Both the position numbers and the translations under genes were made by a program. From positions 2,403-66,402 of the forward strand of contig CAYIMR010000001.1 of NCBI GenBank assembly GCA_964364455.1: a stretch of DNA of 64,000 bases. Direction: 5' to 3'. Every line of letters begins with the position of its first letter. Within the stretch, counting starts at the first letter, position 1. Below the pieces are notes generated by a model. That model searched no databases. It was not told where the DNA came from and saw only the letters and a program-made list of their open reading frames with translations. Source of the stretch: an uncultured Planctomycetales bacterium (lineage in GTDB: Bacteria > Omnitrophota > Gorgyraeia > Zapsychrales > Zapsychraceae). Positions 16,381 to 62,500 of the stretch are shown in pieces.

Positions 16381-16437
16381 TCATTGCCCCTAAAGGCGCC
16401 GCCCCACCCGGTATTCTCGGTTGCCCGGAAAGGAGTG

Positions 16438-16539: not shown

Positions 16540-16741
16540 CCGGGTCTGCTTCGTCCCTCGCCCCTCGTCCCTCGTCCTTCATGGCCTCAAAATTCGGCGC
16601 GTTGGTCTTTCGGGCCAGATCTTCCTGAATGCCGCCCTGCGCCAAGACGCCCAAAGAAGCCGTTCGGATTGAGCCGAAGGTTAAGTTGACGAGAGACCGC
16701 GGATATGTTATAGCTACACTGTTAAATCGGGAGGTGGGATA

Positions 16742-16843
16742 ATGGGAATATATATTTTGCTCGGCGGGTTTCTTATCTTCGCGCTTATTATCGCCGAGAT
16801 CGTGATCCGTCAGGACAGGGGCCGCCATCATCACGGAGCTTGA
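16742..16843 (+). CDS. Small hydrophobic peptide 3 (33 aa): MGIYILLGGFLIFALIIAEIVIRQDRGRHHHGA
   Basis: GGGAGG upstream of the ATG. Third paralogue, with a more diverged tail (RQDRGRHHH). Confidence 0.45.
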   Translation: MGIYILLGGFLIFALIIAEIVIRQDRGRHHHGA

Positions 16844-16967
16844 TCCGCGCGATCCTTCTCCGATCGAGGCCTTCTGCGGCTTAAATATAATTCCGCCTTG
16901 ACCATATCTCTCAGACATGTTAGGATTTGACGATAATTTAGAGTAATCTTTAAAAGGAACAGAAAAG

Positions 16968-17207
16968 ATGAAACGATTAAAAGTCTTTAATAATGACCAA
17001 TGGCTGACTAAGCACTTTAAAGAATTAGTAGATAAATACGCTGGTGGATTCATTATCGCGGTTAACGGCAAGATCGTATATACCAACAAAGACGGCTCAC
17101 CGCGCGATTTAGGGAAACGCGTCAAAAGAGAATTCCCTGATGCTACGCCCTTGTTTTTCCGAGTCCCATATCCCCATGAATTTATATGCGCTCTAATCAT
17201 TCTATAA
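16968..17207 (+). CDS. DUF5678-like small protein
   Basis: In the ORF track: MKRLKVFNNDQWLTKHFKELVDKYAGGFIIAVNGKIVYTNKDGSPRDLGKRVKREF.... AAGGAACAG sits upstream of the ATG. From memory this family is typically paired with a retropepsin-like protease. Confidence 0.6.
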   Translation: MKRLKVFNNDQWLTKHFKELVDKYAGGFIIAVNGKIVYTNKDGSPRDLGKRVKREFPDATPLFFRVPYPHEFICALIIL

Positions 17208-17587
17208 AATTCCCCTACAAAACCTACAATAACATACCCTGTCCGATCATCACTCTTGATATCCGCAAAACGGCCATTGACGCCTATATCGATTCCGGAG
17301 CTTTCTACTCTATTTTCTCCATCAAGGAGGCTGAATGGCTCGGCATAGACTACACCAAAGGCAGGCAAGGCGGCGCTATGGTAGGGGACGGAAATATAAT
17401 TCCAGTATATTTTCATATCCTCCCTATAAGTATCGGCGGGATTTCCCTCAACGCCACGATAGGATTTTCCCCCAAACTTAATATCGGCTTCAACCTTTTG
17501 GGCAGAAAAGACATCTTCAACCGTTTTGTCATTATCTTCGATGACGCCAAAAGAAGTGTCACGTTGATTCCCCGCAAACACCAATAA
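17186..17587 (+). CDS. Retropepsin-like (retroviral-type) aspartic protease
   Basis: In the ORF track: ...IITLDIRKTAIDAYIDSGAFYSIF... carries the D-S-G-A catalytic motif. The ORF overlaps the DUF5678 ORF by 22 nt in a different frame, suggesting translational coupling. Confidence 0.65.
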   Translation: MRSNHSIKFPYKTYNNIPCPIITLDIRKTAIDAYIDSGAFYSIFSIKEAEWLGIDYTKGRQGGAMVGDGNIIPVYFHILPISIGGISLNATIGFSPKLNIGFNLLGRKDIFNRFVIIFDDAKRSVTLIPRKHQ

Positions 17588-17599
17588 TTCTTCAGCGCC

Positions 17600-41500: not shown

Positions 41501-44500
41501 GCCGTAACCCTGGGCGAATTCCAGTTCCTGCTTCATGGTCATGAGATTCGGTTCAATGATAAGGGGATACTTGCTGTCGACGGGAACGCTGAGCCTGCCG
41601 AAATCCTCGGGCAGAATCACCATGAATGCGCCTTTCACCGAGGCGCCGGCCTTGTCGAGATAACGGACGGCCTCTCTGACGTGCCCGCTCTCATCCGTGT
41701 AAGAGAACCTGATATAATACCCGCGGCTGTTTTTGTCTATGCCGTACTGCATCAATTTCTCGATGGATATTCGATTGGCCGGCCTGCCGAGGGCATAATC
41801 CTCGGGGGAGAGCTCAACGGACATCCTGCCGTCAAAGAAACGGCCTATGCCGCCGCCCGCAGGGCCGTCTCTAAGAATCTTTATGCCGCCCTGTATCATA
41901 TCAAGCGACGGCATGACGATCCTGCCCTGCGGATCAACCAGCGTCCTGCCCTCGTAAGCATCCTCAGGCACGCCGACCTCAAAACGGGTATACTGCCATT
42001 CGGGCTTTGTCTGGTCGGGAAGGATGCTCTTGTCCTGCTCGGTCAACGGCGCCCTGACAAACGGAATCTCCTTCTTGTTCTCCTTGCTGTCTTTCTTCCA
42101 GAAGGAGATAAAGTCCTTGAAGCCCTTAAAGCTCAGGAGATTATACTTCGCGTAAGCAGAGGGAGTGCCTGACGTCGCGAGATCCGCCCCAACGCTGGTG
42201 CTCTCGGAGACGTCGTACTTTGTGGAAAGCGTGCCCTTATAATTGTCATTTGAGTCTTTGCTGACGCCGATCTTCACGTCTTTGTTGATATTCAGGCCGA
42301 CCCCGTAGGTCTCGGCTCCCTTAACGTTGCTGTAGGAGACATTCAGATTCTTGTAGCGGCCCGTCAGGCTGAAGCGGTTCGATCCGATGGCCTGCTCGGC
42401 CGTGAAATACACAGGCCCGAGATTGACATCCGCGCCGACGGAGGCGTAATATTCCTCGCGCTCCGGCCAGAGGTCGAGGTAGCCTTTCTCGTGCTCCCTG
42501 TTGAGGGAGAAATTCAGCGTGACGTTCTTGTTGAGCTCGTGCTTGAGGGTCAGCTTCTGGAAGTTATAGGCGTCCTTGCTCTTGAATTCGACGTTGCTCT
42601 GATCCGCGACCGTCTTTCCTGTGGCGGTGTCGGTAATAGTGATATTGTCAATGGTCGTCCTCTGGGCATCGGCATAACCTATCTTCAGGACAAGCCGGTT
42701 CTTTTCGCTCGCCTGATAATCCACAACGCCTTCAACGGCCCGCGTCTGCGAATTATCGCCGGCGGCGTTCACCTTGATGAATCCGGCAATCCCCAGATAG
42801 ACGTTGTTGCCCTGAACGCCGATGCTGTCCAGGATAAGGATGGCGTGCTCTGTCTTGGTGACGCCGCCCCCCGTGGCATACTCTTCGTATCTCTCCGACT
42901 TATTGTGCCCCACGGCAATCCTGTGAATAATGCCGTCGTTGTCCACGCCCGTTGTGGTGATATTCGCCAGGAAATAACTGTTGTCCGGGCTGCCGGTGTA
43001 GGAGGCCTTTGACGTCCCGACGTAGAGATCGACCCCAGGCAGGAGGTTCTGCGTGGCGAACTGCTGGAAGGTTGGAACCAGGCCCTTTCCGTCTTCCTTG
43101 ATATCCGTGAGGCTTATCTCAGAAGCCTCTGTGACAGACCTTCCGTTGAGTGCGGCCATGCGGCCGTAAGGCCTGACGTAGACGTAATACTCGTCTCCGA
43201 TTTGGACAACCGCCGGCGGGGCCCGGGTCATCCGCGCCACGTAACTTCTCAAGGCATTGAACCTGTCCGCCGTAAATTCTTGTATCCCGGCCTTCTCAAG
43301 GTTGATCTTCATCAGATGATCCGTCAAGAGAAGCACCCTGCGGTTATAATCACTGGATGCCCCGGCGAGCTCAGCAAGGGCCTTTTTGGCCTTTGTCTTG
43401 GCGTCGTCAAGGGCCTTTCCTGCCTCTTTAATGACCTTGTTTTCACGCAGGCGCGTCTGATTGGTTTCATTCGATGTCCCAAGCGATTTCAGGACATCCT
43501 CGAGCGGATTCTTGCCTGCCCCGGTGAGCGCGTCTATGGTATCAACCGCTTTCAGGAGATTCTTTTCCTCAATATCCATAATGTTCTTGACGCTCTCACC
43601 GACCCCGTCGGCGAAATATTTGCCTGTGGCGACAAGCTGATTGACCGCGTCAACAATCCTGATGCGCTCCTGAACAATCTTGAGATCTTCCCTGGCCAGC
43701 TTGAGCTTGCGTTCGATGACCTGCGCGGGCGTCTCGGAGGCGCCCTTGGACTCGACATATTTATCGTCCAGATCGGCCTGACGATGAACGCCCCAGGCAG
43801 GATTGTCGTGGTATTCTTTCTCCTGGTCAAGCGTCGGGAGCCACTGCGTGATAAGATTCCTGGTTCCCTCGGAAAACATCTTTTTATTCTCGGCCGCGAT
43901 CTTAAGATATTTCCTGTTTTCTTCTATGCGGCTCAACCGGCCCATCACCTTGGTGGTCCTCGGCTCCTTGTCATCTTCATGCCAGTAGCTCCGGACAGCC
44001 TGCCTGTCCTTGAAAATGGGCACCTTATTCTCGTAATCGGGGACGTCGACCGTCAAAGACGCCTTCAACATCTTGATCGTTCTGTCTAAGTAGGGGATTT
44101 CATTGATAAGAACATTCTTGCGCTCATTGAGAATCTCCTGCGGCGTCTGGAAGAACGTGCCTTTATCCTTGGCGTCCCATGCCAGCTTCTGATTCTTCAG
44201 CATGGGCAATCGCGTGTTCTCCAGGGCAAGCCTTTGCTCGCTCAGCGCAAGAAGCTCCTGGACAAAGGACAGCCACTTGGCATTGCCATTGGCCTTCTTG
44301 ATCTCGCCCTGCAAGTACGGGATGGTCTCGGTTCTCAGTTGATTGATGAGTTTGTTGGTATCGGACAGCCATTTCTCGACGTCCGCGCGGGGCAGGAGGA
44401 TAGTAGCATAATCTTTCTCTCGAAGCATCCTGTCGATCTCATCTCTCCCCTTCTCATCCTCCGCCTTCTTTTCCTGCGTATTGCTGATCGCCACGGCAAT

Positions 44501-47500
44501 GGCCCTCTCAACGGGCCGGAGCATATCGCCGTTGGCGTCCTTGGCCCCAAGCTGATAGCCCTCCGCGGCCGTCTTGGTGCCGGGATTGCGCAACATCCCC
44601 TCCATGTCCGCGATGTTCTTGGCAATCTCGGAACGTTTATCCTGCAGTCTGCTTGAATCCGGACCGAATATCGAGGCCGTGGCGCGATCCGCGTAGGCCT
44701 TGATCTCTTCTTTCAGCGCCGCCACAATGCCGCCGTTCTTGGCCTTTTCCCTAAGCTCGCTCATAAATTTCTCGCCGTTGGTGTCCGTGGGATCTTTGTC
44801 GAGCGCAATGGTCCTGAGACCCTTCAGGAGGTAGTTGCCGTTCATCAGCTTCACGTCCATCTTGCTCACGCCGGCCTCTATCAAATTCCCTATGGCCTTA
44901 GTCTCTTTCAGGAAGGCCTCTTTGTCGTTGCTTTTCCTGGCATCCTCCGCCTTCTTGAGGCCTTCGTACAACTCACGGGCCAGTTTCTCCTCCTTTTTAT
45001 AATCGGCTTCTTTTTGGCTCATGTTGAGATTCTCCTTCTGAACGTCGGAAAGCATCTTCTCATATGCCTTGTCCGTCTTTAATCCCGCGCCTTTCAGGAA
45101 TCCTGTGAGATCGTCGACCGAGGCCTTCATGCCGTACCTGGCCTCCGGCGAAAGCCTGTCGGCAGGCTGTTTGTCTTTTTGAACCTCATATTCAACCTCT
45201 TCCACAGGAGGCATATATCCGTCCGGCAGCCGCCTGGAAGATCCGTTCTTTTCCTGCACAAGCGCGGCAGCGGGATCGTTTTTCTGCTTGTCGGGATAAT
45301 TGGCGCCGAACCCAAGGATACGGGCCTCTCCACTGAAGCTGTCTATGTCAGGGCCTTCCACGATGATGTTGGCCGGCTGCCTGCTGCCCTGAGGCGCCGC
45401 AATAATTTTATGGGCCACAAGCGTCCCGTCGGGTTTACGCCACATGAACTTCACGTCCTTGCCTTCCTCCTGCGGCCATGTCACGTAATCGGCAACATCT
45501 TTTTCGGTAAAGAGATACCGCGAGCCTGTTCCCAAATCAGCGGCAATCGGAATCCTTTGCAACCTCTTCTCAAAGATGGCCACCTCACCCTCAACGGCCT
45601 TGGCGTCCGTATCCTTGTCCTTGCCGCTGTTCCTGATGCCCCAGACATAGGGGAGGTCCTTTGCCTTAACGTCACCCGCATCGACAACCCTGCCTTCGAT
45701 GCCGGCAATGCCCGTGACCATAACCGTGCCCTCCGGCAGCGGCGTTTCGTTGATTATCGTATCAGCCGCGCTCTTGATAATGCCTGCTTCAAACCGCGAG
45801 AACCTCTTAAAGTCGTCGCCATTTAACTCGCGCACCGGTGCCGGCCCGTTAAAATTCGCTGCCGTCTTATTAATCTCCCTGGGATTATTCATGTCAGGAA
45901 TATCGGCCCTGACCACCAGGACTGTCCGGTCTTTAATCTCCGCGGCCCAATCCTCTATCTTGACCGGCCCCTTCGACGTCCCGGCCTTTATCTTGACGAT
46001 CATGACAGGCTCGGTCATCGTCTCTGACTGGTCGACGACAACCATGTCAATCCCTGTCCTCTGCTCTTCTGGAATTGCCGCCAGGATCTTCTGCGTCTGC
46101 CACGAGCTCAAATGAAGCTCATCGGCGTTAAACATCACGGTCTGAGCGGCCTTGCCTTCCCCGTCCTTAATGTCGACGGACTCTATCCTGTTGGGCACCG
46201 GCACAAGGACTGTCTTCTTCTCTCTGATGCCGTCTTTGTTCTTCAGCCATTTCAACCGGAAGGCCTCCTTTTCAACGTCTTCCGGCCTGCCGGTATAGGG
46301 CATGGTGCGCAGATATTCGCCGCGGCTGTTGAGCACAATAAGATGCCCCGTGACGTCCGAAGGATTGACGCTTGACCGCAGGTCTTCAGGGACAAGCGGA
46401 TTCTCAAACCAGTAATGAAGTCTGGCCCCCTCGCGGCTGACGATGACAATCGGATGAACATAGCGGGCATCTCCGTCTTTCAATTCGCCTGAAATAACGC
46501 CGGGATTAACGGGGACCTTCACCTTGTTCCTTCCAAAATAAACCGTCATGCCGTCGCGCTCATATCCCCTTGAGGGGATAGTCAGCGGCATGCCCTCCCA
46601 GTCATAATGCCTGATAAATTTAAACGCTGCCGGATCCCATGTCGCGCCCAATATGATGCCGTTCTGATCTTTTCCGGAGCGGATTTCATGCAGCTCCCTC
46701 AGCCGCGGGACATCCGCCTTGGAAGGCATGATGTACTCCTGGCCTTCCGTCATCATCTGGCCGACGTCTTCAAGGTATTCCTTGGCCGCCGGCTCGGTCT
46801 CGCCCTCAAGTGTATAAAAATGGGGAACGGCGAACCGGACGCGTTTCTCCCAGATGCCGTCCTGGCCGCGGACATATTGATAGCCAAAGAGGAACCATTC
46901 GGGATGCTCTGTGTTTTTGCCATCAACCTCTATCTTGTCCCCTTCGCGGCCTCTGTATAGGGCATAAACTTTGTTCGGATCCTCATTCTCCCTTGCATCA
47001 GTCATGAAGACGACCTGCTGCGCCCCAGGAATCGGCACCGCGCCGTACTTATGCCCTCTTAACACAGAGCTGTCTTTTGGCTTACCGACAATATCGCCGA
47101 GAACCGGCAGATCGCCAAACAGGGAACTCAGCAGATCCGCAGGGAGGTCCTCCAGGATCTGGGCGGGCGTAATGACTATCTCCCTGGCCTTCTTCATGTC
47201 GGTGAAACGGTATTCGCCGGTTGTCTCATCCTTGACCATGGGCAGGGCGCTCATCTTAAGCGTCGTGGCGTCGACAAAGACCCTCGCGGCATCCAATGGC
47301 CCCTGCCATTTATCCACCCGCCAGAACGGATGTTTGCGCGTGATCACAAGGCCGCCTCTCAACGGCCACTCAAGCTGTTTGGCGCGCAGCTCATTGTAAA
47401 TCTTGGCCAGGACCTGGACGTAGGCCAGATACCCCAGGGTCATGGTGGCCGGCGAGGCCTTCGAGAGATCGTTCAAACCAATGCTCTGGACAATCAGGTC

Positions 47501-50500
47501 GAAATAGAGGCTGTAGCTGTTATCTATGCCGACGTTAAAATCTATGGAAAGATCGTTGACCTTGTTGAGGTATTTTCTGAAATTGTAAATGCTGTTGCCG
47601 GGTTTCCAGTTGAGGCCGACGCCGGCGAAGAGCCGGGTCTTGTCCTTTTCTGACAACTCCTCGTATTGCCTGAAAAGGTTGTCGATAAACGAGTACGGAT
47701 CCGTATGAATGGCCTCTGCCGATGCCTTGATAAGGCCGTAACGGGCCTCTTGCTCAAAACGCTTCTGGTCGGCATCGCCGCCCTTGGCCTGGTTGAGTTT
47801 TTTCTCTGCCTTGGCCAGATCTTTATGAAGCCTGGCTATATCCTTGATGATGCGGGCTTCTTTATGCAGGGTTGCCAGCAGCCGGGCAACCTCCGGGCGT
47901 CTGACCACATCCGCGGTCTCAGGCGCGGCCTTCGCCAACTCTTCCATGCTCTTAAATGCCCCTGCATTGCCGTCTCTGAGACGATCGATGTCCTCGGAAA
48001 TCTTGTTGATCTCTGCCTCGAAAAGTCCGGCCTCCTGGGCCCCCTGCAATAAGACCTCCCTGATTGTTGAAACGCCGACAGATTCAAGAACATCAATGGC
48101 CTTAAGCTCAGCGGACGCTTCGGCGAACCGGCCCGTCTCCTTGAGGAAATTATCGTATAAACCGCCGTAGACGCGGCCCATGACGTCCGCGGCAGCCGCC
48201 TTCGATTTCAATAACCGCGCCTCATAGGCCTCGCCGCTCGCCTCGCCCAAATCAGAATCCGTAAGCTTTAACCTGAACAGATAATGCGCCCCTCTCTTTT
48301 CTGCCCCGGCAAATGCCCCGGCTGTTCCGAGAACCGCGCCCGGCTTGATCTCGCCGCCCTGCGTGATCTCAACCGCGCCCAGATGGCCGAAGACCTGTTT
48401 AATCTTGATGCCCTCCTGGCTGGTTGACTCGACGGTAATTTCATAACCGCGCGGCCCGCGCTCGACGGCCGTGACCCTGCCGTCCAGGATGCTGCGCACG
48501 CGTGTCCCTTCCGGCACCACGTGCTCGCGGATGCCTTTCTCATAAGGAATAATCTTATAATCCGGGGAATCGCGCACCGCCATCGTCTCTGAGGTCTGTG
48601 ATTCCAGGAACCTCGGCAGGTCCACTTTTTCCTTGTCGCCGCCTTCCAGGAACGGACTCACCGGATGCCTAGAGAAGATAACGAGACTGCTTGTCATGCT
48701 GTCCGTCCCTGTGGCCTTATTCACAGTCCTAAAGAATCCTTTAAGGATCCGGCCAAGGGCATCGTTGTCTTTGATAATATCCTTGTCCGATATCACGAGG
48801 ACCAGACCCTTTCGGGCGCCTTCCTGATCTTTCAGTCCCTTCCTGGCTAAAATGTCCTCAATGCTGGCCTTTAATGCCCCGGGCAGATGATCAGCCGGCT
48901 CAATGCCTTTGTCTGTGAGCTTCATCAGGCCGCCGTCTTTTCCTTTGAACACCAAATACGGTTCCGGCATATTCAGGCCGGGCTCGCCGGAGAGGCGCAG
49001 GGCCTTGCCCTCAACCATCAATGTCTCAACAACAGGGAATATAACCTCTTTGCCGGACTCCTTCCTGGTCAGCCTGACCCTCTCTTCAATCGGCAGTTTA
49101 TATCCCGCCTCGGACGGGACATCGGCCGGCGCAACCGGACGTTTGCCCTCGGCAGCCATCTTGCGCTCAGCCACGCTGAATTCGCCCGTCCCTGACAAAT
49201 ACTCCGTGTAGCCTGCGGCTTTATCCTGGACAAAGAGCCGGCCGAGCTTGTCCTTGTCAATGTTTTTATACATGGCGATGATCTTCCTGACGTAATCCGG
49301 CGTTTCGTGGTTGCCGCTGATCTGGCCGTTAACCACCTTTGGATAATAGCTGTCGGAATGATCCGGCCCTGCGTTATATCCGGCCAGGCTGTACTGCAGC
49401 AGCTCTTTAAGCGTAGCCTTGGGATACCTGCGGCTCATCTTTTCCATAACCTCCGCCAGATAACTCACGCCTACGGTCACGTTCTTGCGCGGGTCAAAGA
49501 CATCCGGTTCGTACGGCCAGGCCTCGGGGATAACGCCCTCGCGCGCGAGACGCTGGACCGTCGCCTCCCACGTCGTGGCAATAATCTGCATGAGCCCCCT
49601 GGCGCCCTTGGGGCTGACGGCCTTCGGGTTAAACCGGCTTTCCGCGTAAACCGTCGCAAGGACCAATTTGTTAAAATCATCAAAGCTGAAGCCGAATTTC
49701 TTCTCCATGTGCCGGAATATGGCGTACCTGCCCCAGGCCTGCTTCTTAATGGGCATGAGGATATCTTCTTCAAACGACTCGGCGCTCATGACCTCATTCT
49801 CCGCCGCAGCCTTCTTGGCCTTTTCTGCGTCGGATTTCCGGGTGTTCATGCGCTCTATGTCTGCGTCCATACTGTTGAGCGCCTGACGGACGGCGAATTC
49901 CTGGGTCTTCATATCCCAGCGGCCCGTCTCCTCGATCCCAAGGTTTTTCTGCATCTCTTTCACGCGCTGTTTCAGGGCTTCCGTGTAAACGTCCGCGTTG
50001 GCCTCGGCGTCATGCTTAAACGCCATCATCTGCGCCATGTTTTGATAAACGGCCTTTTCATCGCCGGCCGGTTTGTTCGCCTCGGCGAGCCTTACGATCT
50101 GGCGGATGTGACGGACCTGCCAGCCTTTGTCACCCGCGTCAAACGTCTTTGTGTTGCGCCGGCCGAACTCCTCGGTCTCTTTCTTCATGCCCTCAAGACC
50201 AAGCATCTCCTGCTGATCGGCCAGGCTTTGCAACTGCTCTTTGATCCGCTCTTTCTCCCGCGCGTTCTCCGCCAGTTCCATCTGGGCGTTGAGCTTTTGC
50301 CGTTGTAAATCCATCCTTGCCTTGTCCTGTTCCCCGGCGGAGACCTTGCTCACCTCTGCCTCCAAATCCTTCTCGGCAAGATGAATGGCAGCTAAGTAAA
50401 ATTCTTTCTCTTTTCTTTGCAGCGTATTCCGCGCTTGTTTGAGCTGTTCCTTCGCGGCGGTGGAATCTTCCTTTTGCTGTTGAATGCGGTTGACTTCGAG

Positions 50501-53500
50501 TCCGGCCTCGATGATCGCTTTGCGAAGATCCCTTAACTCCGGCTGGACGTCTTTGAGCCTGGCCATCGCGGCTAAAAGCGCCTTTCTTTCTTTCATGGAA
50601 GGATCTGTCCGGCCTTCATATTTTGCTATGATCTCTTTTTCCACGAGGATCTGACGGTCTTCCTTCGTAAAGACATTCGCGTTCTCATCCCTGCCATGCG
50701 TCCTGAAGAAAATTTTGGTCACGTCCCTTAAAGGCATCTCATCGACCGGATAATCCGCTTCCCTTAACATCTCTTTGAGCTGCTTGATATCTTTCCCGTA
50801 TCCGAGGGCGAGGTTAAACCGGCCGAGGGAAATTTCCTCTTCTGCCGAGGCAAGCGCCCGGGCCGAGTCAAGGATTTTCTTCTGAAGCGCCCCTGTCTTT
50901 TCTGTCAGCGCCGCGGCCTTTTGTTCCGAATCCCTGGCATCCTTTTCCGCCGCTTTGAGTGCCCTGGCCTTTGCCTCGAAAGACGTCTTCAGGCTCCACT
51001 GTATTTCCCGCAAGCGGCGGTCTTCCGCTTCGTCTTTGTCGGCTTTCTTCTCACGCGCCGCCGCGCTTTCTTCCACGGCGGTAATGATCTCCTCATGGAG
51101 GCTTCGAAGCTCCTGCTCTTTCTGGTGAATTTCCTCCCGGACCTTAATCATCGCGTCCTCTGCCGGAGTTTCTGCTGACTGGGCGGCGCCTTGAACAGGC
51201 AAGGATGCGTAAGATTTCTTATACAATTCACTGAGCTCTTTAGTGACGCGCTCCGCCTGCATCTGTTTTAAGACAATCGTCTCATCGGGCGTTCTGTCCG
51301 GCTTATTCTGTAATTTCTCGATTTTCTTCACTAAGTCATTCTGTGTAACAGCTTCCATCATGCGGGACAGCTCGCCCTGCATCTCCATCAGCCTGCCTTT
51401 ATGCTCAACATCCAGCGTCTTGCCGTTCTCCAGCTCCTGCATCTGACGGATAATGTTCCTTGCCTTGGATCTTTGATCATAAGGCAGCGCATCCACCAGC
51501 CCCTCGACGCCCTGCCGGTTCTGCCCGCCGGAGGCGAGAGAAGCCATCGATCCTTCGCGCATCTGAGGAAGCTCAACGCCAAACCGGCTTAAGGCATGCT
51601 CATTGGCAAAAGACGTTGCCTGGCCCGCGGCCTCCTCGGCCACGCCAAAGATATCCTTGCCGATGTTCAAGATGCCTTTCGGACCTTCGAGGGCCTGCGT
51701 CCAGACATGGAACGGCCCGCCTATCAATTCGCCGGCAACGGTCACCGCGTGAATCTCTGCGCTGATGAGCCACAGGCCAAGAACACCTTCCCAGAACCGC
51801 CTCGCGATTCTAAGGTTAAACCAGATGTCTGCGGAAACAGATTCGCCGCTGCGATACGCGTCATAAATGCGGATGAGATTGGCAAAAAGACCGACGGAGA
51901 TAAGGTATAACGTCTTTGCCACGGCCTGCGGATAATACCGGAGGGTTGTTTTAAGGCGGGCGATTCTTCTTTTTGCCGCCGGAGGCGCCCTTGGCTGCTC
52001 AACGCGCATTTGAGCGCTCAGGGCATTGAATTCCTCCTCAAGGATGTACCGCAGGTGCCTGCCGGTCGTATAGAAAATTTTTCCTTCCCCTGCGTAAAGA
52101 ACCTTGAATACAGATTTGACATAATTTTCTCCTTGACCGCTCAACTCTGCCCCTGTCTTTCTAAACGCTCTTAATTGGGTAATAACCGCCCCTGCGTCAA
52201 TATCCATACTCGTGCGTTTCTGCAGTGTCTGTTTGTAAACTTCTTTGATCAAAGGACGCAGATTCATGAGCAGGGCTATGACAATCGTATGGAAAATCCC
52301 ACCGATCGTGAAAGAAAGTTTCAAACCGCCCTCGCCGACAAAATGGGCAGCCTGGACTGCCTTCAGCGGCGATACGAACAGCCTCAAGAGATGTTCCAGG
52401 ACATCCCATTGAATAAACACCCCGCCCAAGAGGTATGCGCCGGCGCCGGCGGCGAGGATACCGCTAACGATATACAGTGTCAGACGGGACGCTGTAAAGT
52501 CGACCATGCTGGCCAGCATGGGCACCTGCCACCACAGCGCGCGTAGCCGCCGGCTGAGCCAGCCAATCACTCCGGCTTTCATCCATCCGGATCCGCTCCT
52601 GACCTCAGCCACAACGCCTCGAATATGGTCTTGCGCGGATACCTTCTGCCTTGTGGTTCTTTGCCATGAATCGACCAGTTTCTCGAACCAGTTATCCTGT
52701 AATTTCAGTGCCACAAAGCCAAATCTGCCGGACGGTTTCATGGCAAAGAACCACCAGAAACTATGCAACAACATCTCCCCTGCGCCCGTCAACACGGCCA
52801 GCGGCATAGAAATCGTTCCGTACCGGGAATAAAGCCTGCGGGTGTATTTGATTTTGGATTCACCTTGCTGCGATTTCTTAAACATCTTATAAGATTCTTT
52901 AATCAATCTTAATTCGACCTCTTCCTGTTCTGCCGCGGAAAGGCCTGCGAGCAAATGAGCGTTCTTACCGGAAACCGCCGGCTTGACCTTTTCCTTCCAG
53001 GAAGCCGTCTCGCCACTCCACAGCCTCCAGCCGAGGACCGTGATAATGCCCATGAAGGAAAACAGAACCATGCCCAGCGCTATAAGCGATGTGACCTCAA
53101 AAGAGAATATGGAAAAGAGCACTGCCGGAAGCCATGAAAAACCGACAGCGGCGGTCATAATACCCGCAAGGAGCCCTGCTGATAAGATGCTGACGGCCTC
53201 TCTTGAAAGAAATCTTTCCTTCAAATGTCTCCATCGCCCGGTCTCTTGTGCCCCCTGCACTTCCACAGGACTTGAAACGCGCATCCCTGCGGCTTTCTTC
53301 TCTCGTCCCTCGTCCTTCATCCTTTGTTCCCCAACCGGGCTGGAAGCAAAAAGCCGTGGTGCTGGATTTGCAAACTCCCCGCCGTCTTTATCCAAACGTA
53401 TCTTCTCAAATCCTCTTCTTCTTAAAATACTGGCTATATCGTAGGCAGTCTGCGCGCATTCGTTATCGACAGAGAATCTGACCGCGTCGACATAATAAAT

Positions 53501-56500
53501 CACACTGTCTAACAGACTCGTAAATATGCCCTGTCCTTCGACATTGTATTGCCTCATATCAAAGCCGCCCAAATCAAGAATATTCCTTCCTTCTTCACTT
53601 CTTAGGCCAAAAAGTATATATGGATGCTCCGGCAGGGTACTTTCTTCCGGAAGTCGTGTATAAAGTTCCTCTTCGACAGAAACAGCCTCAAGATAAATCA
53701 CTTTTTCATTTCCCCATAACTGGATGGAAACAATGACGTTATATTCCCTCCCATCCTTTGCCGTAAACCTTGCGCCTTCGAAATATTTTTGGATCATCTC
53801 TTCGGTTATTCTTGCTTTTTCTGCTGAAGTTCGTTTTCTCACGGGGCTGGAACTCTTCACCGGCGAGGAGGCCTTGTCTTCTTGATGATCTTTCTTTTCT
53901 GCCGTATCCTGCATCTTGAACAATGCGCCTTCTTGCGTCTCCTTGGAACCCCGTCTTTCTAACACGAAAAGAACTGCCTTGGATACAACAGTAAAGACAA
54001 CAAAGACGAATCCGTAATAGGCGCGCGGATACAGGGACCGCAATGCCCTGAAGGCCGCTCCCGCCACAATGACTGAAACCCCCGTCCCAAACATCCCTTC
54101 TGTAAAGAAATAGCCCCCGGCCAAAAGGCTGGTCAGGCTGAAACCCCCTCCATAAACGCGCAATAGGATCTTCAGGCCCGCAAGAGCTGAAATCACAGGC
54201 AAAGACAAAAGTCCGAGGATAATCAAGAACGCCGCCGCTGCTGCCTGAAGCCTGTTGGCAATCAGGCTCTTCCATACGCCGGCCACGCGGCCTATCCCGC
54301 GGCGAGAGGCGCCTTTCGAATCAACAGGGCTGGAGGCGTTTTCAACGATAGACAAAGGATGAGGGATAAAAGATACGGCCATCCCTCGTCCCTCATCCTT
54401 CGTCCCTCGTCCTTCGTTAATTGAGCGCGCTGGTTGAGGTTCGGTAGCGCGGAATTCGCTTGTCACTAAAAGCTTCACAGACAAGTTGCTGGATACGGCT
54501 TTCGCTGAAGCCATCGAGTTCTTCCCAGGTTTGGTTGATACCATTGCGTTGGTACGCACGGTTCTCACCGGTGAGAACAAGATAGACCTTAAGGCGGTTA
54601 TGATCTTTGTCTTTTGCTGTAACAATGACGCAATTCGACGTGGGAACGTAGACAAAATGCTTGACTTCAAGGTTTGCACAGCTTGTGTTAAGTCGGACCA
54701 TGACAGACCTCCTTTGTTTTCGTCGCTCGTCGCTCGTATTTCGTATTTCGTAACGGGACGAACAACAGAAAGGGCATGATCAGTCCCAACCAAAACACCG
54801 GGACCAACCAGACCCTTTCGATTAACCACTTGATTTAATTTATCCTGTGCCCAAATAACTAAACGAGATACGAGATACGAGATACGAGATACGGCATTAG
54901 GTAAGCGGGCAAAGTAAGCAGCAAGCAGCACGGATAATAAGGCGATCAGGATCGTATTATTATCCATATTGCCTTTTAAAGCGGAGACAGACGGAATAAT
55001 ACTGAAGAGGGCGGTTAAACCCCTGGCGGTATTCGCGTTAACTCCTTCGGACACACGACGAGAAACATCCGAACGCTCACGCGAATCTTGAAGCGGTAAT
55101 CCAATCGGACTTGCGGCTGCACTAAACCAGCTCTCCCTGGACTCGCGGCTTCCAGCTACACCTTCAGAAGCTTCACGTGCTCCAAGGACGTTTCTGTATT
55201 GATCAACAAGGCCTACATTCGTAGAACCTTGATTGTATCCAACCCTATCAGCAGCATTGCCGTTGATTCCAATAGTCCTTACATCTATAACTACGGACCA
55301 GAGAACCTCAACAGCTTCGTTCCTGGTTAAGGCCTGCCCTACTTCTAATCCAGCAGACACTCCAAGAACTCGAACGATCCTATACCCATCATTTCTGATG
55401 GACACAGACCGCGCACTGCTTTTTCCACTTATAAGAACCACATACTGAGCTAATCCAGACCCAACTGTCGCAGGGCCAGATTCAGAATTCTTCTTATCAG
55501 CCAATTCTGAAATGGCTTCAACTTCACCAGCTGTCCTATATTCACGAGATCCCTTCCTGTTAACCAGGACGAATTCGTGTCCATAGTACTTCAGCACTTG
55601 CGCTACTAACTCCGCTACTTCTGCCAACCGTCCTCTAACATATATATATATCAGAGTAGATTGGGTACTTCTGCTGCTATTCACTCCATTCGCCACTCTT
55701 ACTGCCTGAGACACACTTCGAGAATCAGCTACTCCTTCATTTTGACCATTATGGCTTAACCCATTATGATCTGATGAGTTAGAAACATACACTTCTGACT
55801 TCTCTACTGCAAACACCACTTCTACTGTATTCTTTATCCGCTCTCCTGCCTTTTGCACTGCCTGATCCACTGCGGAAGTGGACGGCAGCTTCCAAATGCC
55901 CGGACTAGGACCGCTTCTGCCAAAGTTTGTACTAGTGTCCTGAGAAACCTGCCTGATTGGGTTATGTGCCCTGGAAACTTCTTCCTTTATATCAGGAGCC
56001 TCACCAATGCTGTTTTTCTTAATCTGGGCATACCAATCATTATGACTTGGGGCCTTTTTCACCACCTGGACTATCGGAACATCCCCAACAACACGACTGG
56101 GCGGAATGCCACCGACCGCTATTGCGGGGATGGCGGTAGCAGGCCGATCATCCCGGCCAAATGGTAACGCATCTGTTCTGGTTCCCGTATCCGCCTTGGT
56201 CGTCATAGACCCACGATCAAGCTCGTAGGTTCCCTTGATATTGCCTTTCTGATCGATCTTAAAAGGTGTCTTTCGGTCACGAGCGAGGCCAAGCTGCATA
56301 ACAGGCAATGACAGGATAGGTGCGATAACTGGCGTTCCAGGACCAAAATCTGGCGGCATAATAATAATAGGTGTTGGCGGAACAGGCAGTATGGCCTTCT
56401 CTGGGGCTAAAGAAGGTGTCATGGTCTTGAGTGCCGGCTGACCGTCAGCGGCTGTTGTTGCGGATGATTCCACCGCCGCTGACTCTTTATTCTTGCCCGA

Positions 56501-59500
56501 GAAAAACTGTTTCAAATCTTCGAAGAATTGCCCCACCCCGCGCAAGAGCGCCGGCACAGCGTATAATTCCTTCATGCGTTGCGCCGTTTCCGCGGCTTTT
56601 CCGGAAACTACCGGCGAAGAGGCGCCGCCTTCAGCCTCAACCAGCGAGCTGGCTACCTTGTTTCCATCAACCTGCAATTCCCCAATTTCAGAATCGAATT
56701 CAATTATCCTGGTTGCGAGGCGGCCCTCGTTCATGTATTCCGCGTAATTCCCTCCTACCTCCTTTAGCTCATCCCTAACTACATTGACAAACTTATCAAA
56801 GCCGTAATCTTCGCTGGTTTCATTTAAAACCAACCGTACCTTTAAATTATTAAGGCCAGCCCCTGAACCTTTAAATTTATTTAACATCACGCCATTAATA
56901 AAATTCTTCGTATATTTTTGCATCTCGGCCGCAGAAGCCATCGAAAGAGGAGGGGTTAAATGCCCTAAAACCGCAACTTTATTATTGAGATCATATACAA
57001 GAACTCCCAAGCTTCCGGCTAAATTCCGTGTGGTTAATTTCCCCTTGCCTGTTTCGGCACCCCCGACAGGAACCTCAACGGGGAGAAAAGGAGTCACCTC
57101 ATTTACCGCCTGCTGAATCTTTTGATTAAATTCCCGGATCTCTTCTTTAGTGATGTTTCCTTCCTCCGCGCGTAAGCGCCGCTTGCGAATATCCTCTTCG
57201 GAGTCAAACTTGATTTGTTTTGTTCCAATGTCATCAATGACCCTTCTTACCAGCATCGCGGCGGCCACAGATGCCTTGATGCCATCTCGCAAGAAACTTT
57301 GTTTTTCACGGCCATCCAACAAACCCACATACAGTTGTTCATTCGCCTCAATGTTCTGTAAGGAATCTCTATAGCTCGCCTCAACCCGCCTGTTGGCCTG
57401 CTGGAGCATGCCTTCATAAAAATCCTTTGACCGCGTTTTCACATCCACCAAACCCAACAGATCAGATACGACATTCTCCCTTTGAGCAAACAACTCTTCG
57501 CTGCCGATGTATAAGAAAGCGAGGGCGTTCATTAACCTATCCTTATCCTTCTGCTCAATCTTACCGATATCTTTTCTCTCCTGATAATAAGTCCTATTAA
57601 TAACCTTGTAATCAACCGGCCCTAAGTCTGTTTCCCATCTGCCGTTTATAAGACCGCGCGTATCATCGGGCAGTTCCGCGACAATAACAACATCAACATC
57701 TTTCCACAGGCTGCTTCCATGGGCCGCGGCATACACAATTTCTGCCTTTTCACCTAATTCCGCGCGCACATTATTCGGGACAATTTCTTTCAACCTTCTC
57801 TTTTCAGCTTCGGTCATCGGGCTGGAGGCGCCCTTGGACTGGGCCAAAACAATTCTTCTTTGCGCCGCGCTGGTATTTTGCGCCTGACGAATCATCCATT
57901 CTCCAATGGCTTGCTCAGGGGCCGTCATCTCTTTGCCGGGTAAACTTTGGATTTCCGTCGGCGTGAAAGGTTCAGCCTCGGCCACCATGCGGTTGAGAGG
58001 GATCTTTCCCTCATTTAATAACTGATAAGGCTTAACCTCCTTATTTTTAACCTCTTCCCCTTTGGCATCAGCGCGTCCTTGACCATAGGCAATGTCCCTA
58101 TTATCAATTAACTCAGCTGGCACACCTTTTAGCGGTATGCGCACAAAACCACCTGTGACAGCCGGCAATGTTTCCGTATGACTTGTTAATTGGGAAAGGT
58201 TGAAATTCCCCTGGGACCTGATCTTCTGATATTGCTGCGAAGAAATCTTCAATATATTCGCGTCCCGGGCTTCCACTTTAATTTCATAATCATTCACCCG
58301 TTCTGCCTTAAGGCCTATTGCTGTTGCCTGGATATTTCTCCCCTTGGCATCCTTGATCACCGGAACAGGGATATCCGCGTATTCGCTATTAATCCTTTGA
58401 CTATCAAAGGCAACCTCATAAAGATCGCCGGTAACACGGTCAACGAGATGGATTTCAGGAGCCCCCGCCTGAGGAGATACCTTTGATCGGCGCGGCATTC
58501 GCACAACCACTTCCGGCTGTGCAATGGCATATTCAACAGGTGTTAAATTATCCGGATGATCAAATTCCTGCCGCATAACCCTTGGCAAATTATGTTGAAT
58601 GTATGCGCCCACATCCATTGATGTCTGCCCAATAGCCTCTTGAGCGACTAAATCAGCCACCGTTAACTGACGGTCAATGATCTCATCACCGGCCTGACGG
58701 CCATGAACATTTGAGATGGCCCCGATATTATTGCCATCCAGGCGATAAACCAGGATATCCTGGTTAGCGGCATCCCAAACAACAATGCCATATTCGTCCG
58801 AACCCGGCCCCATCCTTGAAACAATGGCCAAATTCTCCGCAGGGCGTGTACGGGCCACCATATTGATGAAGGCCTTATAGTTATCATTACCGACAAAAAT
58901 ATTCTGTTTACCGGGTATTCGAGAGCTTGTATAACTCGCCTGGCTGGCAATCATCGAATCAATAATTTTCTTTGCCCCGGGGATATCCCCAAAATCAACC
59001 GCATCATAAAACGCTTCTTCTGTCTCTCCGGGGATCTGTCCTGAATACCCTTGCGAGAGAGTATCAAACCCGAAGTCCTCTATGCCGATAACCTTTGCCT
59101 CACGGATCGCTTGTTGCATATCCGGCGTATACGTCGCAACCGCGCTCATCGGCGCCGTCTTGGATTCTTTCAATAATGGTTCTCGAATTTTTATTAACCG
59201 TTGGTTCACTGTCTTATCTGTTCCCGGAGCGTCCGGCCTTTTTAGCGCCTCCTCGACAATCGCCTGCCGCGTTTGCGGCAATTTGTTGCTGAATTCACTT
59301 AATTGGACATACTTCCCTGCCTGGAGAGCCTCGCTATAAAGATTATCGGCTATTTGCTTGGCTTCTGTTAAATTGACTTCTGCCCCACCGGTATAAACCG
59401 GTGAAATACCCGCGTAAAAATTCAAATCCCCTGCCCCAAAGGCATCCACCTTCTCTTTTAATTCCGGATGCTCTTCCGCGATCTCTGTTTTAATACGGTT

Positions 59501-62500
59501 AACAATTTTATTCCTGAAATTATCGGTCACCGCGTCTGTCCTCAAGAGAACATTGCTTAAAACATCCTCGGTGAAACTAACCCCTCTTTCCGCGCGGGCA
59601 TTTCTTTCTCTATACCCGGCTACTTGTGCCTGCCGCGGGACCATTACTTGAGGAGCGCCCTCGAAAACAACAGCATAATTAGGCCCGGCCTTATAGATAT
59701 CAAAATCAATATCTTCTTCATTTAACGGTGCCTCGCCCTCTTTAACCGTTTGATTGTAACTCTTGACCGTCTCGCGAATGGCTTCTCGAATCGCACCATT
59801 TATCTCAGGGCCGGTATACGCCAGGACCTTATCCCCTATTTCATGGCCAACCCCTAATTCTTCACCCAGGGTATTAAGCCATTTCAGATCCTGAAGTTTG
59901 ATCATTGAAATACTAACGGCCTCCTTCCCCTTCTTCACTCGCGATATTAAATCCTCCTGGAGTTTAGAATAACTCTTGACTCCACCCGTTCTCGTAAATC
60001 TTTGTTGAAGGCTCTCAAATGTTTTGACAACGCCGCTAATAGCTGACTTGTCAACCGGGGATCTGGCCTTGACCGGCGAACTGGACGCCTGAGGGTTCAA
60101 AACATCTTTGATCTTCGGCGAAATGGTGATTTTCATATCGCGGGCCGGTTCCACCGGGCTGCTGGACGACGGGCCTTGAACCAATTCGGGCGGCGCCGCC
60201 TGAATTGACTGTCCCATGACCGGCGAGCTGGAAAGTTTAATAGTGACAAGACTTCCTTCCGCCCAACCCCGGGCATTGAAAGACCCAAAGGATCCGTCGT
60301 CAAACTTCACGTGAACGACAAACGTGTTAATACCGTATCCCCTCGGCATAAATCTGAAACTATGAATCGTGCCTAACCCCTGAGCGGTGTGCTTAACTCT
60401 TGCGCCTTTCACAACACCCTTTTCTCTCAGAGAGCCCAGCAATTCCCGTGCCCCCTCTTTTTCCTCTGGAGTCAACTTCACCGGCGAGGCCGCGGATTGA
60501 GGTTCCCTGCGCCCGATCACCACTGCACCCCAATTGGGCCCTCTCGAAATGGGCACATTTGCTACAACTTTTAACCCGGATTCTTCCATTTCAGAGACAG
60601 AATCAAAATGCCTCGTCTCTCCGCGTCCACCACTATTCATCACAACATGCCCGCCCGGGCGCAGATTCGAAACAACTTTTTTGAAAAGATCCCCGCCTAA
60701 GAAAGGAGAATAACTCACATATAAAACATCATAACCGCTGGCACCGTCGAGAGAATCGCTGGTAACTTCAGGAGGCACAAATGACGCAGCGTCTTTGTTG
60801 ACATAGTAAATGATCTCACGATTTTTTATCCTGCCATCTGTCGCCGGAAGGCCGAACGTAAAGACGGCCCTGGAGGCATCGCTCAAATCCATATTCAAAT
60901 CAACGGCTCCTACCCCTCGCAGTTGTTTCTCGATGGCCGTGAAGTTATCCAGTCCGTTCGTATCTCCCATGAACTGCCGGGAGAGATCTACAAATACATA
61001 ACGCGAGGCATCTGTTGCGGCCAAAGGTCCAAGCACATCAAATCCAGCGCCGGGATAATAAACCGTGATATCCCTGCTGCCATCAGGATTGATTGCCGAA
61101 GGGCCGATCCTCCCCAGCATCTCAATCTCAAACGCCCTAACGGGCCGTGTCTCTTCGGTCAGCTCAGGCCCAAAATTCACGCCGCCTTTTAGACGTTCAA
61201 TAAAATGTTTCCTATTCCCAGGTTGCCCCACAGGGCTGCTGGAAGCGATAAGGTCACGGGCCGCGGCTGCATAATCTCTCTCTTTTGCAGGAAGCCTTAC
61301 AAGATACGCCTCATCAATGCTTGCGGCCAACTGCTTAATAAACGTTTCAGAAACATGCCCGCCCCAGGGACTGTTCTGCCTAATACTTGCCATAAGGGCA
61401 TCCGTGCCCTCAATCTTTTCAACCGTCTGAGAGGTATAATCCGGGCTGACGTCAAGCAGAACAACCTTGTCCACCGTAACAAACTCGGGCCTCTGATTCA
61501 CATCTGCTCTGATAAGCTTGCCGTTCTGCTCCCTGTCCCTGTAAGGCAATCTCCCAGCACCTTTAACATAGTTGGGGCCGGCAATAAAAGTTTCATCAAA
61601 GAAAAATCCGACAGGGATGTCATCAATTACCAGGGCATAATCGCGTGGGTTCAAGTCAAAAATTTCACGGCTCAAAGTAGATTTGCCGCTTTCCGGAACG
61701 CCCAGAATCAGCACCCCTCCATTTGTCCGATTGTCAACGAGGACATTGCCGTGTATCGAATAGACATCCGCATCTTTCAATCCAAGGTCACGCAGCTCCT
61801 GCTTTAATGCCACAGGGAGACTGACATTCTTCAAATTATCCAAGCCGGTTTTAACCTTTTTGTATATCCGGTTGGAAAGATTCAGCACATCTTTCAGGGT
61901 CACCGGCGAGGAGGCGGCAAGATAGGCCGCGGCGGCCGCGTAATCCTTCTTTTCTTCATTTTCAGGAAATTTCACAAGGTACGCTTCATCAATGCTCGCG
62001 GCCAACTGCTTAAGAAATTCCTCAGAGACATGCCCGCCCCAGGGACTGTTCCGCCTGATGATTTCTATAATAGCCTCGGGTGAATTAATTTTCTCAACTG
62101 TCTGGGAGGTGTACGCGGGGCTGACTTCAAGCAAAACAACCTTCTTAACCCTTACAAATTCAGGCATCCGATTTACGTCCGCATCATTTATGAGTTTTCC
62201 TGTCCGATCTCTGTAAGGCAACGTCCGCGCCCCTTTGACATAGTTAGGACCGGCGATGAATGTCTTCTCATCAAAGAAGAACCCAACAGGAATATCGTCA
62301 ACAACCAGGGCGTGGCGGCGGCTCAAATTCAGAATCTCATGGCTCAGTAAGGATTTTCCACTTTCCGGGGCCCCCAAAATCAGAACACCCTTGTCTGTCT
62401 GAGTGTCAACGAGAACATTGCCATGCATCGGATACACCTTCCGATGGAGTTTTTCCTCTAATGTCGTTGGGAGGCTGACATTTCTTAGATCATCTAATCC

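Follow-up and report, generated by a model that had tools for sequence, protein, structure and literature searches.

We have identified a conserved 94-residue gene with its own ribosome-binding site that lies out of frame inside a giant reading frame of an Omnitrophota genome. The giant frame is free of stop and cysteine codons across this gene in all 10 nested loci examined, which suggests that ribosomes read such giant frames straight through. We estimate the probability of this reading, in which the giant frame is translated through the gene as a spacer, at roughly 0.6.

A small gene nested in a giant reading frame

The window analysed here, a stretch of 64,000 nucleotides, contains on its minus strand a frame (first codon base at coordinates ≡1 mod 3) without a single stop codon over 21,333 codons at 50.2% G+C. 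The frame is open at both window ends, and a near-identical contig (L003) keeps it open for about 700 nt beyond the window end. An apparent frameshift in L003 near 45,400 is a scaffold gap of Ns, and the only indel between two near-identical strains is 3 nt. The features relevant to this study, all on the minus strand, are:

1..64000 (-), giant stop-free reading frame of the multi-enzyme type
54905..56617 (-), upstream giant-frame module X, from ASSPV to ...LLSVLLAAYFAR
54338..54904 (-), giant-frame spacer of 189 codons that overlaps the whole small-gene unit, with no stops, no cysteine codons and no conserved amino-acid sequence
54863..54893 (-), heptamer tandem array (AUCUCGU, 4.4 copies)
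54768..54819 (-), conserved stem-loop upstream of the Shine-Dalgarno (SD) sequence, followed by a U-rich tract, UUCUGUUGUU, at about 54757-54767
54720..54752 (-), heptamer arrays (ACGAAAU x2.7 and ACGAGCG x2.6) just upstream of the SD
54708..54715 (-), SD sequence AAAGGAGG, 6 nt upstream of the ATG
54417..54701 (-), small ORF of 94 aa (ATG...TAA; MVRLNTSCANLEVKHF...TSTSALN), in frame +2 relative to the giant frame
54345..54413 (-), stem-loop of about 30 bp (-46 kcal/mol) just after the small ORF's stop codon
54323..54337 (-), ASSPV junction motif in the giant frame, the first such motif after the small gene, marking the start of the downstream module

The original prediction, made from the sequence alone, described a small ORF with a perfect SD within a giant frame open from 54383 past 54910, and this observation is confirmed by the sequence, the ORF list and the translation. 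The giant-frame peptide given with it (...LSTFPRRIASLLQQKTKIITALRSILFSPV...) is exact, and ATG 54382 is indeed in the giant frame. One correction is required: nothing ends near 54900, since what ends at about 54905 is the amino-acid conservation of module X and not the reading frame. The prediction offered two interpretations, either two genes (ending near 54900 and restarting at ATG 54382) separated by a small gene or a genuine overlapping gene inside a giant ORF. It is partly supported, in that the second alternative fits the evidence and the first does not.

The frame is tiled by many distinct enzyme domains, as judged by Pfam matches to SLT, M23, Radical_SAM, GFO_IDH_MocA, UDPGP, methyltransferases, Glyco_transf_5 (x2), CBM_48 with alpha-amylase, HD_4 with RelA_SpoT, and ACT. 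The closest genome loci belong to Candidatus Omnitrophota/Omnitrophica MAGs, at 90% and 65% identity of the small protein (the taxon comes from loci L009 and L011), while one locus at 79% is labelled Planctomycetales; the window's own contig is from Hainich groundwater.

The small ORF is under strong purifying selection in its own frame

Among 10 sequences, substitutions fall 561:350:1796 on codon positions 1, 2 and 3 of the small ORF, and amino-acid identity is 0.62-0.92 in its own frame against 0.31-0.77 in the giant frame, the latter being equal to that of the stop-laden third frame. The absence of any homologue had been named beforehand as grounds for rejecting the gene, but the family comprises 20 close clusters (72-100% identical, 88-96 aa long) and 91 clusters at 50% identity, all from Omnitrophota where a source is named. 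The ATG is conserved, as is AAGGAGG at the same spacing in all aligned relatives. The AlphaFold2 model is confident (pLDDT 85.5, pTM 0.74), with strands b1-b5, a helix and a sixth strand, but the protein has no match in Pfam, NCBIfam, PHROGs, PADLOC, PDB sequences, or the PDB and BFVD fold libraries.

Distant members of the family are ordinary stand-alone genes located between mraZ and rsmH in the dcw (division/cell-wall) cluster. Homology to this family is supported by profile-profile alignment (hhalign probability 97.1%, E = 5.3e-11), and one protein (P0079) scores E = 3.4e-7 against the narrow profile in 1.8 billion sequences. The window copy, in contrast, follows module X inside the giant frame, with no MraZ or Methyltransf_5 domain nearby.

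The giant frame is free of stops and cysteine across the small gene

To determine whether the open frame could arise by chance, we resampled synonymous codons of the small protein using the host's codon usage. This predicts 3.2-5.3 stops in the giant frame, with a stop-free outcome in 0-1.2% of samples per locus, whereas none is observed in the window or in eight other distinct homologues, against 6-11 in the remaining frame. By this measure the open frame is more than chance. A tenth nested locus (L019, representing a subgroup at 43% identity) is also stop-free, although it was not included in the resampling. The frame is open on both sides for 10-18 kb in L009, L011 and L012. As a control, the dcw-type homologues L014, L016 and L018 carry stops in both alternative frames. 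However, with the small ORFs' own, already shaped, codon usage, a stop-free +1 frame is expected 29-49% of the time, so that the test depends on taking the giant frame's usage as the host norm; in addition, the loci are related and are not 10 independent trials. One locus that seemed to lack an upstream giant frame (L020) proved to be a contig with an inverted duplication.

A second constraint acts at the peptide level. Across about 1,550 spacer codons in 9 loci, the giant frame has 0 Cys and 0 stops, while each other frame has 3-10 Cys and 4-16 stops per locus. All 19 NTG codons of the nested small ORFs are followed by G, giving TGG, and none is followed by A (stop) or by C/T (Cys), whereas the dcw homologues show a mixture. 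Cys avoidance inside the ORF is partly confounded with TGA avoidance, but the giant frame as a whole has 0.10% Cys against 1.17% in conventional Omnitrophota genes.

These compositional constraints might suggest true dual coding, in which the giant-frame peptide is itself a functional part of the giant protein, for example a flexible tail or linker of required composition; the spacer does follow a hydrophobic helix at the end of module X. We consider this unlikely, because giant-frame identity between relatives equals that of the non-coding third frame and because the spacer varies in length (432-624 nt) and sequence, with different hairpins and heptamer units. An FSPV/SSSPV reading inside the small ORF, considered as a conserved junction motif, was likewise rejected: only L007 reads SSSPV, the others reading FSLV, SLPV, SLLV or SLPA, and it is a by-product of the conserved L-T-G-E of the small protein.

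The same pattern appears at a second place in the window. At 15847-17845 the giant frame runs antisense through a DUF5678-like gene and an aspartyl-protease gene, with 0 stops and 1 Cys in 666 codons, while the other frames there have 18-46 stops. Long plus-strand ORFs at 37.9-44.1 kb and elsewhere were rejected as further nested genes, since they have no Pfam hits and the giant frame is coding there.

Flanking structures and the two-gene model

The small gene is flanked by repeats and predicted RNA structures. The heptamer array at 54863-54893 is predicted to pair with the arrays at 54720-54752 (replaced in L007 by a different heptamer, GGCCACT x3) and to form the outer stem around the conserved hairpin; the fold of 54300-54930 gives z = -5.7. 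For the hairpin itself, RNAalifold on 10 loci predicts 19 pairs, 8 of them with compensatory double changes, and its inner stem was flagged as terminator-like. The 5' arm of the downstream stem-loop is the heptamer array 54382-54417, and ATG 54382 sits in the loop; relatives carry a different hairpin at this position (GGACUG/GAGGCCC...GGGCCUC/CAGUCC). An A-[S/P]-S-P motif directly follows the hairpin in 9 of 10 nested loci. Hairpins are not a general feature of SSPV junctions, as the mean folding energy at 32 sites equals that of random positions. No Rfam covariance model reached its gathering score anywhere in the window, the only signals at the locus being spurious, sub-threshold miRNA-precursor look-alikes at 54343-54422, and no tRNA or tmRNA was found. 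A promoter scan of 53800-55400 revealed no sigma-70-like site, which is uninformative for this phylum.

The conserved GC-rich stem-loop with its U-rich tail resembles an intrinsic terminator and could end many transcripts before the small gene. This would be consistent with a two-gene model, in which the upstream giant gene effectively ends at the hairpin, a second giant gene restarts after the small gene, and the open frame between them is never translated. In line with this, gene callers start a giant gene 20-80 nt after the small ORF on relatives' contigs, downstream modules differ between loci directly after the small gene, and the giant-frame peptide over it is not conserved. Nevertheless, no relative has an in-frame stop after module X, although one point mutation would create it, and an untranslated frame has no reason to be free of stops or of cysteine. 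ATG 54382 is ACG in L009, and no in-frame start is conserved between the small gene's stop and the ASSP motif. A conserved AAGGACUGU...AUG after the stop in other relatives was also rejected as a start site: RNAalifold pairs its GGACUG with the CAGUCC of the ASSP codons, and the AUG is out of frame in most of them or absent (L010). The gene callers' starts arise because those contigs begin just upstream. The downstream heptamer array differs between the window and L009 by exactly 3 units, that is, 21 nt. The two-gene model is therefore not supported and appears unlikely.

A trans-frame product, made by giant-frame ribosomes shifting into the small frame near the SD or heptamer repeats so that the small protein becomes the C-terminal domain of module X and terminates at TAA, as in potyvirus P3N-PIPO or dnaX-type frameshifting, is very unlikely. 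Internal SD-like sequences and flanking hairpins stimulate frameshifting in prfB and dnaX, and one database protein (P0021, 332 aa) joins the giant frame to the small frame. However, the small frame is closed by a stop 15-81 nt upstream of its ATG in every locus (in L013 only 5 codons upstream, next to the SD), and the ATG at ideal SD spacing and the N-terminus MV..NT are conserved family-wide, including in stand-alone dcw copies. No X XXY YYZ slippery site is conserved, and the P0021 junction lies inside the ORF and fits a 1-nt insertion in the DNA, which is not a translational event.

Module X precedes the small gene in every locus with upstream sequence, as shown by a protein alignment of 5 loci and by BLASTP matches. 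It is weakly constrained and matches no Pfam family, with only a sub-threshold RapH_N hit. We suspected a non-coding RNA, since its codon score is about 0, its nucleotide conservation is high with weak periodicity, and its fold z-score is -3.7 against -1.3 for a control. This was rejected as the main reading because a consistent third-position excess of 1.4-1.5x appears in four comparisons, protein-level similarity extends to L011 at 30% identity, and there is no Rfam hit.

With regard to origin, the small gene with its flanking hairpins and arrays may be, or have been, a mobile or recombination-prone cassette that was tolerated in the giant ORF after its stops were purged, a view compatible with our favored model. 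Identical small genes are joined to different downstream sequences (window versus L006), many contigs break 15-190 nt upstream of the gene, and the second island with its unrelated antisense genes is also flanked by heptamer arrays. This origin remains doubtful: the gene always follows the same module X and was found once per genome in the genome scan, no transposase, integrase or terminal inverted repeats are present, and nesting is retained down to 43% identity, so that it is old and stable.

Proposed reading of the giant frame

Based on the above data, we propose that the 94-aa ORF is an ordinary gene that initiates independently at its own strong SD and ATG and ends at its own TAA. It would be a paralogue of an uncharacterized small protein specific to Omnitrophota, whose canonical copy lies between mraZ and rsmH. 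Ribosomes translating the giant frame would come out of module X, whose conserved part ends ...YFAR at 54905, read the whole small-gene unit (two stem-loops, the SD and the ORF) in the other frame as a sequence-unconstrained spacer of about 190 residues, and continue into the next module at the ASSPV motif (54337). In this view, selection on the giant frame over the spacer is only compositional: no stop codons, so that translation and expression of the downstream modules are not interrupted, and no cysteine, the rule for the whole giant polypeptide. The arrangement would thus be overlap with a translated spacer rather than two functional proteins encoded in one stretch. The conservation of the small gene and the stop- and Cys-free state of the giant frame across 10 nested loci are established by the sequences themselves, whereas read-through translation is inferred from these sequence constraints alone, as are the expression of both products and the later removal of the spacer at [A/S]SSP[V/I] junctions; a role of the small protein in envelope or division-related regulation is the weakest of these inferences.

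A more speculative, rather improbable possibility is that giant Omnitrophota 'proteins' are stop-less operons, in which ribosomes run without terminating through dozens of enzyme-sized modules joined by [A/S]SSP[V/I], which would be a co- or post-translational separation signal. Ordinary genes, out of frame on the same strand or antisense, would survive nested in translated-through spacers purged of stop and cysteine codons. On this reading the small gene would be the first natural in-genome evidence that the whole frame is read, and its dcw-related product may act on the giant protein or its processing.

The nested gene provides an internal test of whether such frames are translated as a single chain. 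Over about 190 codons without amino-acid conservation, the giant frame is kept free of stops and of cysteine in every lineage sampled, down to 43% identity of the nested protein, which is hard to explain unless ribosomes traverse it. It also shows that 'giant protein' annotations can hide real conventional genes, at least three of them in this window. The locus (54300-54930) supplies concrete peptides of both frames, such as IASLLQQK, SILFSPVR, AVSSNLSVK and LLVTSEFR for the spacer, and VYLVLTGENR, NGINQTWEELDGFSESR and IQQLVCEAFSDK for the small protein.

Comparison with known systems

The host frame corresponds to the 'multi-enzyme metabolic cluster' class of Omnitrophota giant ORFs (bioRxiv 10.64898/2026.06.07.730766, section 8; West-Roberts et al. 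2023, bioRxiv 10.1101/2023.11.21.568195) in phylum, in domain content (starch synthase, GT1, radical SAM, methyltransferases, HD/RelA, and SLT/M23) and in being stop-free for tens of kb. The 2026 preprint covers 176 complete Omnitrophota genomes. Both papers treat the ORFs as uninterrupted proteins and leave open whether frames of 30,000-147,000 codons are translated as a single chain and whether and where that chain is cut, the 2023 paper leaving open whether they are cleaved. Keyword searches of the two papers, with some terms applied to only one of them, found no description of nested genes, of a junction motif or of cysteine depletion.

The copies between mraZ and rsmH in Omnitrophota dcw clusters (P0129, P0132, P0133 and relatives) are homologous to the nested protein, have the same length and share the motifs F-x-H-x-[VI]-x-[VL]-P...C...RNG[IL]..W.E...[IV]P.[FY]. 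Their identity is 24-33%, however, and they are stand-alone genes in a conventional operon with stops in both overlapping frames. One source labels one of them 'Hfq', but no Pfam match supports that name.

In viral polyprotein ORFs (potyvirus PIPO in P3N-PIPO, alphavirus TF), a short alternative-frame ORF is embedded in a long frame whose modules are separated after translation. The viral ORFs lack their own start and are reached by slippage or frameshifting, whereas the ORF described here has an SD and an ATG and its frame is closed upstream; polyprotein processing is only hypothetical here.

The arrangement is also comparable to comS of Bacillus subtilis, a small regulatory gene reported to lie out of frame inside the very large NRPS gene srfAB of the srfA operon (D'Souza et al. 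1994; Hamoen et al. 1995). In both cases a small ORF on the same strand lies wholly inside a very long ORF in another frame, with its own ribosome-binding site. What is new here is that the long frame is a sequence-unconstrained spacer, whereas the srfAB sequence overlapped by comS encodes a functional synthetase domain; that the host frame exceeds 21,000 codons and is made of fused enzymes; and that the nested protein, of 94 aa, has a confident predicted fold and stand-alone paralogues.

Results

A 94-codon gene nested in a giant reading frame

The minus strand carries an ORF with an ATG start and a TAA stop that lies in the +2 frame of a minus-strand frame with no stop codon in the entire 64,000-base window, that is, 21,333 codons at 50.2% G+C. 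The observation made in the original prediction holds, and the giant-frame peptide it reported for this region is exact. The giant frame is open at both ends of the window, and a near-identical contig from Hainich groundwater (L003) keeps it open for at least about 700 nt further; the one apparent frame break in L003 is a scaffold gap of Ns. The features of the junction, all on the minus strand, are the following:

54905 (approximately) to 56617, minus strand: module X of the giant frame, from ASSPV at 56617 to ...LLSVLLAAYFAR
54863-54893 and 54720-54752, minus strand: heptamer arrays upstream of the small ORF
54768-54819, minus strand: upstream stem-loop
54708-54715, minus strand: Shine-Dalgarno (SD) sequence AAAGGAGG, 6 nt upstream of the ATG
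54417-54701, minus strand: small ORF of 94 codons
54382-54417, minus strand: downstream heptamer array
54345-54413, minus strand: downstream stem-loop
54323-54337, minus strand: ASSPV motif

The giant frame encodes recognizable enzymes, all in phase. These include SLT and M23 peptidase, radical SAM, a GFO/IDH/MocA oxidoreductase and UDPGP, together with several methyltransferases, two glycogen/starch synthases, a branching enzyme (GlgB), an amylase, and RelA/SpoT with ACT domains. Between 62500 and 61300 (minus strand) lie two tandem paralogous modules with an HPr-kinase-like P-loop (GAPESGKS and GVPESGKS), each preceded by an SSPV junction. An exact 215-nt direct repeat occurs at 7438-7652 and 12346-12560, 4.9 kb apart inside the giant frame; it encodes SSSSPVVNENNEEPIVQKAKKIAREGYDEKLYKSAEHRANHVEAFGG..., and each copy begins at a junction motif. 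On the plus strand, a run of long ORFs (173-432 aa) lies in a single frame at 37886-44089, antisense to the giant frame. These have no Pfam hits and are most likely shadow ORFs caused by the rarity of TTA, CTA and TCA codons in the giant frame there.

The small ORF is a real gene. It has 20 close homologue clusters that are 72-100% identical and 88-96 aa long, and a profile search finds 91 clusters at 50% identity, nearly all of 77-130 aa. Among 10 sequences from the homologous loci, substitutions fall 561:350:1796 on its codon positions 1, 2 and 3. Amino-acid identity is 0.62-0.92 in its own frame, as opposed to 0.31-0.77 in the giant frame, which is no better than in the remaining, stop-laden frame. 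A window-trained codon score also switches to the small frame at 54500-54650. The AlphaFold2 model, obtained with an 86-sequence alignment, has a pLDDT of 85.5 and a pTM of 0.74, and its predicted fold consists of five strands, a long helix and a final strand. Searches of Pfam, NCBIfam, PHROGs and PADLOC, of PDB sequences and folds, and of the BFVD fold library returned no informative match.

Distant members of the family are 24-33% identical, with an hhalign probability of 97%, and are stand-alone genes between mraZ and rsmH in the dcw clusters of other Omnitrophota. In three such loci (L014, L016 and L018, at about 10001-10288) the gene is uncharacterized and encodes 87-95 aa; one source annotates one of these as 'Hfq', with no Pfam support. 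The nested gene is therefore a paralogue of a lineage-specific protein linked to the dcw cluster, and this context of its paralogues is the only functional lead for the small protein.

The giant frame is kept open and free of cysteine across the small gene

In every nested locus the giant frame is the small frame +1 and has no stop across the small ORF, whereas the remaining frame has 6-11 stops. This holds for the window and for the homologous loci L001, L002/L012, L006, L007, L008, L009, L010, L011 and L013, although these loci are related and do not represent independent trials. Resampling of synonymous codons with the host usage, a norm that was taken from the giant frame itself because the window has almost no conventional genes, predicts 3.2-5.3 stops, with a stop-free outcome in 0-1.2% of samples per locus. 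The frame is open for 10-18 kb on both sides in L009, L011 and L012, and the 43%-identity subgroup (L019) is nested in the same way. The dcw-type homologues have stops in both alternative frames, so that the property is not intrinsic to the protein family.

The giant frame is also strikingly poor in cysteine, with 22 Cys in 21,333 residues (0.10%), several of them in the radical-SAM region. The retained residues include a spaced trio at 29392, 29380 and 29371, which we take, by spacing and location, to be the radical-SAM CxxxCxxC. The relatives have 0-0.18% Cys, as opposed to 1.17% in conventional Omnitrophota genes. This depletion extends to the otherwise unconstrained spacer, which runs from the end of module X to the ASSP motif and is 432-624 nt long. 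Across nine loci its giant frame has 0 Cys and 0 stops, while each of the other two frames has 3-10 Cys and 4-16 stops per locus. All 19 NTG codons in the nested small ORFs are followed by G, giving TGG, and none is followed by A (TGA) or by C/T (Cys), whereas the dcw-type homologues show a mixture. Cysteine avoidance is a property of a polypeptide and not merely of an open frame, and this is our main argument that the spacer is translated.

Anatomy of the junction

Module X is found in every locus that has upstream sequence and shows a weak but consistent third-position excess of 1.4-1.5x. The stem-loop at 54768-54819 has 19 predicted pairs, 8 of them with compensatory changes across 10 loci, and is followed by a U-rich tract. 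In the window, heptamer arrays are predicted to form an outer stem around this hairpin. After the TAA comes a second strong stem-loop (54345-54413, −46 kcal/mol); other relatives have a different hairpin here, whose 3′ arm encodes A-S-S-P.

Tandem heptamer arrays (15550-15582, 15856-15883, 16551-16577, 54382-54417, 54720-54752 and 54863-54893) occur in the window only at this junction and at the second nested-gene island described below, and arrays are predicted to pair with each other to form long stems. The unit sequence differs between relatives at the same position (GGCCACT in L007, AGAAGTA/ACTTCTT in L019). The downstream array has 5 units in the window and 8 in L009, a difference of 3 units (21 nt) that preserves the frame.

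The module that follows the ASSPV motif differs between loci, even between strains with identical small proteins. Module order is shuffled between relatives, with breakpoints at the small gene's stop codon and the ASSP motif, as seen in L013 and L010 versus window 3409-1229 and in L006/L008 versus window 54416 downward. For example, the glucan-phosphorylase-like module lies 51 kb downstream in the window but directly follows the small gene in L013. A restart of the giant frame after the small gene finds no support in the start codons, since ATG 54382 sits in the hairpin loop and is ACG in L009, and no in-frame start is conserved.

A second nested island and a recurrent junction motif

At 15847-17845 the giant frame runs antisense through two plus-strand genes:

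16968-17207, plus strand: DUF5678-like gene (E = 0.004)
17186-17587, plus strand: retropepsin-like aspartyl protease gene (Asp_protease_2 at 24.5 bits against a cutoff of 24.3)

The giant frame there has 0 stops and 1 Cys in 666 codons, while the other frames have 18-46 stops. Heptamer arrays flank this island as well. By eye, further small plus-strand membrane-peptide ORFs may lie at about 16384-16539 and 16745-16850.

The peptide motif [A/S]SSP[V/I] occurs 32 times in the window (for example at 56620, 54334, 24580, 14602, 12553, 7645 and 1240, minus strand), as opposed to 0.39 expected from composition by our calculation. It is encoded by both serine codon families (AGY and TCN), delimits enzyme-sized units with a median spacing of 240 residues, and is enriched 30-80-fold in the giant frames of all relatives. 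It is not generally associated with hairpins. This makes it a candidate boundary or processing (cleavage) signal between modules.

Discussion

Based on the above data, we propose, with a probability of about 0.6, that the small gene is translated independently from its own SD and ATG, and that giant-frame ribosomes read the same stretch in another frame as a spacer with no constraint on its sequence and continue into the next module. The conservation of the small gene and the absence of stop and cysteine codons from the giant frame across it are directly observed, whereas expression of the small gene and translation of the spacer are inferred from sequence alone. The terminator-like hairpin upstream of the small gene is not explained by this proposal.

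The original prediction offered two alternatives, a pair of giant genes with a small gene between them or a genuine overlapping gene inside a giant ORF, and its interpretation is partly supported. The two-gene model is disfavored, because no lineage uses the trivially available stop codon after module X and an untranslated frame would not be purged of Cys codons. A frameshift or trans-frame product is unlikely, as the small frame is closed 15-81 nt upstream of its conserved ATG. It is worth noting that one predicted database protein (P0021, 332 aa) joins the giant-frame spacer to the small ORF frame at ...QQKTK/DHNRLKVYL. This is consistent with a 1-nt insertion in AAAGACAAAGA, which could be either a sequencing error or a real truncating allele.

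Term searches of the two papers on giant Omnitrophota genes (bioRxiv 10.64898/2026.06.07.730766 and West-Roberts et al. 2023) found no mention of nested genes or of a junction motif. The closest genome loci to the window are Candidatus Omnitrophota MAGs, and the in-phase series of enzymes in its giant frame matches both the 'multi-enzyme metabolic cluster' class of Omnitrophota giant proteins described in the former paper and the giant genes of the latter.
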